Positions 26,569 to 27,740 of a stretch of 29,948 nt of DNA are shown piece by piece. The first letter of the stretch is position 1; every line of letters begins with the position of its first letter. The DNA is from a virus (taxonomy: Duplodnaviria > Caudoviricetes): positions 1-29,948 of the IMG/VR virus record IMGVR_UViG_3300020528_000009; one strand, given 5' to 3'. The translations under genes and the position numbers were made by a program. The notes beneath the pieces were generated by a model that saw only the letters and a program-made list of their open reading frames with translations, was not told where the DNA came from and searched no databases.

Positions 26569-26642
26569 ACCGAATGGTCCGAACGGTTTGACGGAAGAAA
26601 TCTTATAAGTTTCCTGAACAGGTTCAATTCCTGTATTCGGTA
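26569..26642 (+). tRNA. tRNA-Ile(UAU)
   Basis: Acceptor ACCGAAT/ATTCGGT+A, D stem TCCG/CGGA, anticodon arm GAAAT-CTTATAA-GTTTC, T arm ACAGG-TTCAATT-CCTGT; G at position 8; no encoded CCA. Confidence 0.82.
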
Positions 26643-26677
26643 CAAATCCTTTTAGATAAAGGATAAGAACTATCATT

Positions 26678-26686
26678 TGATACAAT
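26678..26686 (+). promoter_or_regulatory. putative extended -10 promoter
   Basis: TGaTACAAT upstream of the Rpf-like gene leader. Confidence 0.5.
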
Positions 26687-26865
26687 GGTAAGACTATATA
26701 TTTCACTTAGGAGGTGATGCTTATTGATATAACTTTGTAAAACAAGTAGCATTAAAAATGATGCAGTTAATCTTGTTTTGCAACCTTAGCGTATGCTAAA
26801 ACAATTAATCAAGATGTTTGTAGACATTATTGGTTTGTTGAAAACAAAAGTTTTAAGGAGCAAAA

Positions 26866-27528
26866 ATGAAAACTAATCATAAAATAAAAAACATGCTGTT
26901 ATGTACAGCATTATTAATTGGAATTACGGCAACGAATGCCTCAGCAAAACAGAATAAAACTGAAGTAATTCCAACACTCGCTTTTAGCGAAAATGGAAAA
27001 CCAAGAGCATTAGATTTATATTGGCATAGAATGGCACAATGTGAAACTGGTGGTGATTGGAAAGATAAGGGAACTTGGTCAGGTGGTTTAGGAATATATA
27101 AACAAACCTGGTCAGGTTATGGTGGAAAAGAATTTGCACCAAAACCAGAACTTGCAACAATAGATGAACAAATTATTATTGCAAATAGGATCTCAACTCA
27201 GGGATATCAAACAAAAAATGAATTCCGGACATTTGAGGACAGACAAAAGAATAAACCATTCTTTAGAGAACCAGTAGGCTTTGGCGGCTGGGGTTGTAAA
27301 AAAAATGTTGGAAATCCAGTTTTGTTTAAAAAATTCCCTGCAAAAACACTTCTTCGTGAATATCATCTTGGCGAAAGAAGTAAGTATGTATTTGGTATAC
27401 AGAAAATTATTGGCGTTAAGTTTGTAGATGGTTATTTCGGACCATATACAGATTCCGTTTACAATAAGTTTATGAGCAAATACAGAAAATATCTAATTGC
27501 TGAATACGAGAAGTATAAAACTCAGTAG
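26866..27528 (+). CDS. secreted Rpf-like lytic transglycosylase with PG-binding-like C-terminus
   Basis: Signal peptide ending NASA; WHRMAQCETGGDW, GGLGI...TW..YGG..FA..P..AT..EQI.IA.R; C-terminal IQKIIG...DGYFGP.T. Confidence 0.85.
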   Translation: MKTNHKIKNMLLCTALLIGITATNASAKQNKTEVIPTLAFSENGKPRALDLYWHRMAQCETGGDWKDKGTWSGGLGIYKQTWSGYGGKEFAPKPELATIDEQIIIANRISTQGYQTKNEFRTFEDRQKNKPFFREPVGFGGWGCKKNVGNPVLFKKFPAKTLLREYHLGERSKYVFGIQKIIGVKFVDGYFGPYTDSVYNKFMSKYRKYLIAEYEKYKTQ

Positions 27529-27540
27529 TAAGCAAAAAGA

Positions 27541-27609
27541 ACGGTTGATTGTTACCGTAAAACCTCATGCCTGACATATGTGTGAATAAAAACAATCAAT
27601 ATGTCAACC
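27541..27609 (+). ncRNA. candidate double-pseudoknot RNA
   Basis: Two hairpins whose loops each pair perfectly (8 bp) with adjacent segments of the 3' tail. Confidence 0.6.
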
Positions 27610-27610
27610 C

Positions 27611-27682
27611 GCTTCTATAGTTAAAGGGATATAACTACGGACTTCTAATCCGTTATTTTAGGTTCGAATCCTAATGGAAGCA
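27611..27682 (+). tRNA. tRNA-Arg(UCU)
   Basis: Acceptor GCTTCTA/TGGAAGC+A, D stem GTTA/TAAC, ACGGA-CTTCTAA-TCCGT, TTAGG-TTCGAAT-CCTAA. Confidence 0.9.
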
Positions 27683-27684
27683 CT

Positions 27685-27740
27685 GAGAGATTAAGTATAG
27701 GTTTGTAACTGGATATTCCTACCTATGCTTAATCTCTTTT
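27685..27740 (+). terminator. long hairpin with short U-tract after tRNA-Arg
   Basis: GAGAGATTAAGTATAGGT / ACCTATGCTTAATCTCTT then TT. Confidence 0.65.

Follow-up and report, generated by a model that had tools for sequence, protein, structure and literature searches.

Two conserved structured RNA elements flank the gene for a predicted secreted peptidoglycan-cutting enzyme in a phage cassette

The window analyzed here is the whole stretch of 29,948 nt, in which the source record, IMGVR_UViG_3300020528_000009, is contained completely. The DNA is that of an AT-rich phage, with a GC content of 30–43% per kb, and encodes a terminase large subunit and WhiB. WhiB serves as a marker for freshwater actinophages in the available text of PMC6802176, and on the basis of this marker an actinobacterial host is predicted for the lake phages that harbor the cassette. 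Nearest cellular homologues share 30–43% identity and are mostly proteobacterial judging by their titles. Related records are 26–96% complete, which suggests a full genome of ~105 kb.

The locus consists of a gene for an Rpf-type lytic transglycosylase with a structured leader on its 5′ side and a compact double pseudoknot on its 3′ side, followed by tRNA-Arg(UCU) and a terminator-like hairpin, with tRNA-Ile(UAU) upstream (Table 1). A first-pass annotation of this DNA had listed two tRNAs, an extended −10, a Shine-Dalgarno (SD) site, a TTG-ATA-TAA minigene, a leader, an Rpf-like open reading frame, a pseudoknot element and a terminator, and all of these were found where it had placed them. The multi-hairpin leader is indeed structured (z −2.45).

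Table 1. Features of the cassette in the window
Feature	Position	Strand	Basis or remark
tRNA-Ile(UAU)	26569-26643	+	Rfam 47.7 bits; G at position 8, CCA not encoded; optional neighbor
Extended −10-like promoter TG-n-TACAAT	26678-26686	+	Predicted +1 at ~26693
Upstream SD-like site AGGAGGTGAT	26709-26718	+	Sole AGGAGGT of the window
ATT frame ATT-GAT-ATA-ACT-TTG-TAA	26723-26740	+	ATT 8 nt past GGAGG
TTG-ATA-TAA minigene	26724-26732	+	Overlaps the ATT frame
Possible −35 box TTGATA, 17 nt before TAGCAT (26747-26752)		+	−35/−10 match
Leader helix P1	26736-26746 with 26772-26782	+	Predicted ON state; RNAalifold
Anti-SD strand TTTTGC-AA-CCTTA	26776-26788	+	Predicted OFF state with SD region
Leader hairpins P2 (26786-26799) and P3, AAACC-like linker, SD	26786-26865	+	
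SD region of the enzyme gene, TAAGG-A-GCAAAA	26854-26865	+	Partner for the anti-SD strand
Rpf-type lytic transglycosylase ORF, 220 aa	26866-27528	+	PF06737; putative signal peptide
Double pseudoknot, 66 nt	27541-27606	+	Covariation; descriptor searches with shuffle controls
Spacer, 4 nt, up to predicted RNase P site	27607-27610	+	
tRNA-Arg(UCU)	27611-27683	+	Rfam 64.9 bits; tRNA-like element instead in L014, L097, L099
Intrinsic-terminator-like hairpin and U run	27685-27740	+	z −6.75

In order to establish which of these parts belong together, loci were gathered via protein, leader and tRNA searches, and a synteny table was drawn up from 28 loci picked for this leader type with duplicates removed, which are related rather than independent. 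The −10 hexamer, the upstream SD-like site, the leader and the transglycosylase gene occur together in all 28 of these leader-selected loci, the hexamer being TAyAAT or TATACT preceded by TG or GG in every case, and tRNA-Arg(UCU) lies no more than 320 nt downstream in 23 of them. The linkage that the first-pass annotation had offered as hypothetical is thereby borne out to the extent that the parts are not mere neighbors. By contrast with tRNA-Arg, tRNA-Ile(UAU) is adjacent in 18/28 loci as judged by ARAGORN; six of the ten loci without it apparently represent one lineage, and in one of the ten (L099) a non-canonical UAU gene occupies that slot. Hairpins comparable to the terminator are present in relatives. 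The parts and their order are established by this comparison, as is an exchange of the gene itself: the enzyme slot holds an Rpf-type gene in 20 loci (in L105 assigned from a homology search) and an SLT-type gene in eight; three of these eight were tested and gave SLT/SLT_3 matches under the cut-off. The locus is best explained as a conserved phage unit for expressing a peptidoglycan-cutting enzyme that is predicted to be secreted.

The enzyme in the window is, by sequence, an ordinary PF06737 member and an Rpf-type lytic transglycosylase. It matched PF06737 with an E value of 1.4e-14 and 54.9 bits, compared to a curated cut-off of 27, and the domain was found in 41/41 aligned members. The catalytic Cys-Glu motif, C59-E60, is invariant in these 41 sequences and aligns with RpfB (E 7.5e-08). 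The protein also matches phrog_29757, and its N-terminus, judged by eye, has a basic-hydrophobic-ASA organization. The earlier description of an Rpf-like gene fits this phage, with secretion and a dormancy-breaking role as putative traits, but it does not extend to the cassette as a whole, considering the SLT-type genes noted above. PF06737 domains were found in 99 cultured-phage records, among the matches listed mostly within tape-measure proteins, and in two cultured Rhodococcus phages that were checked the Rpf gene sits inside an operon without room for such a leader.

The leader was searched for with a core pattern, which gave 18 viral matches, and a model of the leader added six, two of them weak. 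All 18 viral pattern matches directly precede a transglycosylase-like ORF. An early scan had returned at least 120 stretches, 13 real ones among them, and the two cellular pattern matches were both due to chance. The leader model gave no hit in 151 sampled genomes from the phylum of an Acidimicrobiia MAG, in a narrow search run without a positive control. No Rfam covariance model for ydaO or other riboswitches matched the leader, and an RT-17 identity was rejected, with 30.9 bits in the window compared to a cut-off of 40.4 and no match in 11 relatives. In conservation and covariation analyses, the leader ranks above chance.

The strand at 26772-26788 has two mutually exclusive partners, the 5′ strand of P1 or the SD region of the enzyme gene itself. 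P1 forms with 11/11 pairs in 26 of 35 leaders and with 10/11 pairs in the other 9, covaries between the 100-kb and 200-kb phage groups, and conceals most of the anti-SD strand. A three-way covariation links P1, anti-SD and SD, the position being G-C-G in 20, A-T-G in 4 and A-T-A in 4 of the 28 loci, with the A-T-A state found in two lineages (the window and L090; L440 and L443). The other pairs of the OFF helix are mostly invariant or fixed by the search pattern, so that this helix is represented by one covarying position. When the two folds were computed under constraint, ON and OFF lay at most 6.1 kcal/mol apart in 35/35 leaders. Two mutually exclusive helices, one of them over the SD and with one covarying OFF position, are what is looked for in a translational switch, and on the basis of these folds and covariations the leader is probably a two-state element that hides or frees the ribosome-binding site, ON when the strand pairs in P1 and OFF when it pairs with the SD.

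Several events could throw such a switch. The upstream SD-like site is followed by AT(T/A/G) at +8 in 28/28 loci and by TTG at +9 in 22/28, and it opens a frame of 3–15 codons whose peptide is not conserved. This site ends ~13 nt before P1, close enough for a ribosome bound at it to open the helix, an argument that draws on the size of the ribosome footprint and on the discrimination of AUU starts by IF3. Ribosome loading at the upstream SD/AUU would then melt P1, free the anti-SD strand and turn the enzyme off. We tentatively favor this as the trigger in this clade; a ligand or a protein is nearly as likely, folding kinetics are a less likely cause and an internal promoter an improbable one. 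The 200-kb phage group is devoid of the upstream SD-like site, and the upstream SD/AUU bases can alternatively pair with ACC inside the leader.

A different account of the leader gives it a single stable fold in which the SD complementarity is incidental, and takes TTGA(C/T/A)A-17-TAGCAT for a second promoter rather than a minigene. Consistent with this, TTGANA lies 16–18 nt upstream of TAGCAY in 12/19 distinct leaders, L105 retains TAGCA though its inner hairpin is lost, and the OFF pairs are, as stated, mostly invariant or pattern-fixed. However, the three-way covariation in two lineages speaks against it, 7/19 leaders miss one of the two boxes, and RNA contigs cross the entire leader, and we consider this account unlikely. 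The contigs come from five runs in five studies and match parts of the leader or coding region at low depth, but none covers the pseudoknot; transcription, strand and ends cannot be read from them. Contigs from two of the five runs cover scattered other genes as well. Three contigs start at 26652, 26665 and 26671, which is 22–41 nt upstream of the predicted +1, so read-through or DNA are also possible as their source.

The first-pass annotation had also proposed that the TTG-ATA-TAA minigene and an early ATA codon tie expression of the enzyme to AUA decoding by the phage tRNA-Ile(UAU). Every part that this model needs is in the window, the two-codon shape TTG-ANA-stop recurs in 15/28 loci, and codon 3 of the ATT frame is ATA in 11/19 distinct leaders. 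Additionally, among Ile codons at positions 2–10, ATA accounts for 26/38 in enzyme genes compared to 37/142 in control genes, these being related sequences. The enzyme gene does contain the four ATA codons (7, 77, 99 and 178) and six AGA codons counted earlier, but these numbers are ordinary: ATA makes up 4/14 Ile codons compared to 143/627 in the other 49 ORFs (p = 0.54; rank 22 of 50) and AGA 6/9 Arg codons compared to 206/356 (p = 0.74; rank 20 of 50). An ATA within codons 2–10 occurs in 13/50 window ORFs. The exact TTG-ATA-TAA is present in only 3 of the 28 loci, the others having TTG-ACA-stop (8), TTG-AAA-TAA (4) or another arrangement (13). The ATA share of enzyme-gene Ile codons is unaffected by an adjacent tRNA-Ile (91/263 with, 47/137 without; p = 1.0), and so is the early ATA, found in 14/18 loci with the tRNA and 8/10 without. 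Codon 7 is ATT in L003, L092 and L096 despite the presence of the tRNA and ATA in L002, L004 and L005, which lack it.

A record that is 96% complete (G004) keeps the cassette intact with only tRNA-Arg and tRNA-Asn found and no tRNA-Ile in bases 1–99200 of 100001, an absence that rests on ARAGORN because a DNA search missed a divergent tRNA-Ile copy in another record (G006). The early-ATA excess may reflect A-rich gene starts, which would leave the initiation region unfolded. The premise that AUA and AGA are rare in GC-rich actinobacteria concerns a predicted host, and the window itself has 30–43% GC per kb. The tRNA sets of six records carry mostly U34 anticodons, which fits the ordinary view of phage tRNAs, and these most likely serve A-ending codons across the whole phage genome. 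The lambda bar minigene has the sequence AUG-AUA-UAA. The window resembles the bar minigenes (cited in PMC2490762) in placing a start-AUA-stop unit behind a strong SD; unlike bar, the start is TTG, and relatives have ACA, AAA or ATA as middle codon or no minigene at all, so that a bar-type element, with start-AUA-stop kept in 3/28 loci, was rejected. Rare-codon sensing at the locus is not supported, we regard it as very unlikely, and the rare-codon reading of the locus is retired.

The second RNA element has a different anatomy. Its first hairpin, P1, pairs 27541-45 with 27554-58, and its second, P2, pairs 27565-70 with 27580-85. These are followed by a continuous 16-nt tail, the first half of which (27591-98) pairs into loop 1 (27546-53) and the second half (27599-606) into loop 2 (27572-79). 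Covariation of this structure is established in 16 distinct sequences: 94.9% of cells are paired, and 17/27 pairs show two-sided changes, distributed over all four helices. None of 500 shuffles paired as highly, and slid partners pair at 24–45%; a measure of further pair types did not exceed shuffles (160/500). The alignment (A5) leaves out three rows of A2 misaligned at P1 and includes four other copies. Paired bases and A-rich linkers account for most of the invariant columns, with almost no invariant unpaired bases, and the second linker is wholly different in the 200-kb group. The element measures 65–73 nt in 20/23 copies. A hairpin is inserted in its middle in four loci (L014, L098, L099, L430), and one locus (L438) has lost the 5′ hairpin and kept only the 3′-most pseudoknot. 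No Rfam family, ribozymes included, matched it.

To identify further copies, we used descriptors of the fold. A strict, sequence-free descriptor was run on both strands of 202 sequences (1.83 Mb) and matched 44 times, in each case directly before a tRNA-Arg or a tRNA-like element; shuffled window sequence gave 4 matches in 23.3 Mb. Inspection by eye or a model recovered what this descriptor had missed, namely variants in L098, L430, L438 and L446 as well as the first of the tandem copies. Once the descriptor was relaxed, 23 distinct copies emerged, compared to 7 matches in 232 Mb of shuffles. Fifteen of the 23 lie before tRNA-Arg, 4 before tRNA-like elements, 1 before another copy and 3 before neither, and the share of 19/23 is biased upward, as the enzyme or tRNA-Arg had served to retrieve many of the loci. 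The distance to the tRNA or tRNA-like element is established for these 19 as 3 nt in 2, 4 nt in 13 and 5 nt in 4, with the spacers of L181 and L446 read by eye. In six whole records a script found 6 copies, of which 4 precede a tRNA or mimic and 2 have neither behind them; in G011, which has the leader, it found no pseudoknot copy. An early pattern scan had returned at least 119 stretches, 1 real one among them, and a narrow search with one pseudoknot subtype in cellular genomes gave 0 matches. Weak model matches in L287 and L308 fell within coding sequence, as did G011:18893 and G010:104348, while a match in L454 was a GC-rich chance hit and plastid ycf2 matches were antisense to tRNA.

The element is a portable module on the 3′ side of genes and of non-coding stretches. 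The three copies without a tRNA terminate other non-coding stretches, and one more copy without a downstream tRNA is in G009. In WhiB-bearing phages of 206–268 kb, the pseudoknot stands behind unrelated genes in non-coding clusters, also in tandem, and in 200–270 kb phages it lies in RNA clusters 3.5–8.5 kb from the leader and enzyme gene. Such distant and tRNA-less copies indicate that it is neither specific to the enzyme nor always placed at an RNase P site. Tandem copies 4–5 nt apart occur in L405, L410, L423 and G012. Near-identical pseudoknots precede tRNA-Arg behind an Rpf-type gene in L017 and an SLT-type gene in L423. The tRNA-like elements are of two kinds, one of 110–114 nt (L014, L099) and one of 79 nt (L481, L489), and both keep an acceptor-like stem and a T arm at the same distance as the tRNA. 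A tmRNA identity for the longer kind was rejected, the third pair being A-U or G-C rather than G3-U70 and RF00023 scoring 25.8 bits compared to a cut-off of 47. A stop-codon read-through signal was also rejected, since the stop lies 60–146 nt from the tRNA where tRNA-Arg directly follows the pseudoknot, and the window has tandem stops. No pseudoknot was found before the tRNA-Ile, -Lys, -Leu, -Asn, -Gly, -Met or -Ser genes of the same records. In one locus (L105), where no tRNA follows the gene, a plain terminator takes that place.

In bacteria, a terminator hairpin normally protects the 3′ end of an mRNA. Considering its position, the double pseudoknot may cap the new 3′ end that would arise on the message when host RNase P excises the downstream tRNA, a proposal that builds on RNase P processing in actinobacteria and that we hold with belief and doubt in even balance. 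A single transcript would run from the −10, or from farther upstream, to the terminator; RNase P would cut at the tRNA or tRNA-like element, so that the terminator hairpin is removed from the mRNA; and the final 16 paired nucleotides, threading two hairpin loops and leaving 3–5 bases free, would slow 3′-to-5′ decay. The covariation in all four helices, the specificity of both descriptors relative to shuffles and the 3–5 nt spacer in 19/19 copies with a tRNA or tRNA-like neighbor argue for such a cap. So do the two unlike tRNA-like elements that replace the tRNA at equal distance, the retention in L438 of the 3′-most knot only, and the plain terminator of the tRNA-less L105. Against it stand the 3/23 copies and the one in G009 without a downstream tRNA, and other genes that precede phage tRNAs without such an element. 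In addition, a hairpin end in E. coli becomes subject to decay once five A residues are added to it (available text of PMC3997798), so a short tail need not protect.

A less probable alternative, though not a negligible one, is that the pseudoknot is itself a small RNA module, protein-binding or blocking 5′-to-3′ decay, which RNase P merely releases from the tRNA. The tandem arrangement, the copies within non-coding clusters and without tRNA, and the near-constant length are in keeping with this. However, the module would not be expected to drop its 5′ hairpin and retain the 3′ knot, as in L438, to accept a hairpin at its middle in four loci or to have almost no invariant unpaired bases. An improbable third reading makes the element an aid to or a gate on tRNA maturation, either sequestering the RNA upstream to let the pre-tRNA fold and be cut, or slowing RNase P. 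The fixed spacing and the near-identical pseudoknots before tRNA-Arg behind unlike enzymes would suit it, but the element was not found before the other tRNAs named above in the same records, is retained before tRNA-like elements that have no anticodon, and exists in copies with no tRNA at all. Finally, a self-cleaving ribozyme that separates transcript units, as a 5′-side counterpart of theta ribozymes (a 3′-side precedent in the available text of PMC10879173), is highly improbable, since the tRNA-adjacent, compact, doubly pseudoknotted and arrayed form is countered by the lack of a match to any Rfam ribozyme family, by invariant columns that are mainly paired bases and A-rich linkers, by a second linker that differs in the 200-kb group, and by a fold of two hairpins with a threaded tail, unlike the nested HDV fold.

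Returning to the cap reading, the anatomy of the pseudoknot resembles the MALAT1/mascRNA end and the tobamovirus end, although it is a member of neither family. The MALAT1 triple helix is of the U-A-U type; the phage element has covarying Watson-Crick helices and no U-rich loop or A tract. In both, a tRNA-like element follows directly on a compact structure, in which the 3′ end that RNase P would make is predicted to be buried. In MALAT1, RNase P cuts at mascRNA next to a 3′ triple helix (available text of PMC4604432), and in the phages a tRNA or tRNA-like RNase P substrate directly follows the structure, at 3–5 nt, in 19/23 copies, with 3 lacking one. MALAT1 is a eukaryotic nuclear lncRNA, whereas here the RNA is a phage mRNA or ncRNA, the neighbor is a real tRNA or an anticodon-less mimic, and cleavage and protection are predictions. 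At the 3′ ends of tobamovirus mRNAs, a row of pseudoknots leads directly into a tRNA-like fold, and the phage element shares this arrangement. Unlike tobamovirus, it belongs to a DNA phage, a single continuous tail pairs with both of its loops and the tRNA would be removed by cleavage, whereas the tobamovirus tRNA-like part stays attached to the genome of an RNA virus. Theta (HDV-like) ribozymes are likewise small double-pseudoknot RNAs beside phage tRNA genes, but they are self-cleaving 3′ trailers with a nested HDV fold (available text of PMC10879173), while the present element lies 5′ of the tRNA and has a threaded-tail topology. GOLLD and ROOL are phage non-coding RNAs near tRNAs that contain pseudoknots and have no known function (available text of PMC5737381 and bioRxiv 2024.12.08.627333); they measure ~580 to over 800 nt, unlike the 66-nt element here, which matches no Rfam model.

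For the leader, the closest parallel lies in cells. The c-di-AMP/ydaO riboswitch precedes actinobacterial rpf genes, and the phage leader is similarly a structured, predicted translation-controlling element on a cell-wall hydrolase with a Cys-Glu motif and a lysozyme-like Rpf domain; unlike ydaO-rpf, it matches no ydaO model and its enzyme gene is exchangeable with an SLT type. The leader and the pseudoknot are two structured RNAs without Rfam match that are conserved in the cassette. Neither is described in the literature surveyed, largely at abstract level, and the supplements of PMC10690425 and PMC5737381 might list either motif.

We tentatively suggest that lake actinophages independently evolved a MALAT1-like way of finishing an RNA, in which a portable pseudoknot would cap the end that host RNase P leaves beside a tRNA, or beside a reduced tRNA mimic retained solely for cleavage, and a new class of switch on the same message would time translation of the hydrolase. 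If this is true, a 66-nt knot and an RNase P site would form a phage counterpart of a eukaryotic lncRNA mechanism, some phage tRNAs and their anticodon-less mimics would gain a role as processing signals, and the pseudoknot would be a small portable stabilizer. The leader is a candidate for a phage-restricted, hydrolase-specific switch, and its trigger would tell when these phages remodel the host wall.

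In four loci (L483, L484, L489 and L490, from virus records G009 and G012 and two further records), a conserved non-coding stretch that contains a covarying stem runs directly into a double pseudoknot. This stretch sits inside a cluster of tandem pseudoknots with the 79-nt tRNA-like element, located behind a gene of ~335 aa for which no match was obtained in Pfam or PHROG. In another record (G010), a mostly non-coding region of ~1.1 kb that ends with a double pseudoknot is possibly a large non-coding RNA and showed no Rfam match at an E-value of 0.1. An additional structured stretch of ~110 nt, also lacking an Rfam match, separates the stop codon from the pseudoknot in L097.

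The longer tRNA-like element (110-114 nt) is composed of an acceptor stem and a T arm, with the anticodon arm replaced by a long stem. The L099 copy scored an E-value of 1.1e-06 against the tmRNA model, and despite this score the G3-U70 pair is absent from it. The tRNA-Ile slot of the same locus is occupied by a tRNA-like gene of non-canonical build: its anticodon loop carries UAU, it has no D arm at the usual position, and a D-loop-like stretch precedes the T arm. This gene scored 31.7 bits against the Rfam tRNA model and was not called by ARAGORN. Immediately 3' of tRNA-Ile in the window lies a short hairpin, which among relatives has a counterpart only in the closest ones.

The C-terminal part of the enzyme resembles a peptidoglycan-binding helix pair, and none of the 41 enzyme members matched the Pfam families of such helix pairs. 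Following the SLT-type gene in L440, L443 and L447, a three-way-junction RNA precedes tRNA-Lys, and a second, different element, possibly pseudoknotted, stops ~4 nt short of tRNA-Arg. In four loci from unrelated phages (L425, L435, L441 and L445), a nested two-hairpin structure stops ~5 nt short of tRNA-Arg(UCU).

Coordinates of the structured elements and the enzyme C-terminal part
Feature	Locus	Positions
Hairpin	window	26646-26664
Enzyme C-terminal part	window	27343-27480
tRNA-like gene in tRNA-Ile slot	L099	1283-1359
tRNA-like element, 110-114 nt	L014	3306-3420
tRNA-like element, 110-114 nt	L099	2325-2437
tRNA-like element, 110-114 nt	L097	end of locus
Structured stretch	L097	1393-1510
Mostly non-coding region	L486	1460-2546
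RNA elements 3' of SLT-type gene	L440	1104-1250 and 1390-1500
RNA elements 3' of SLT-type gene	L443, L447
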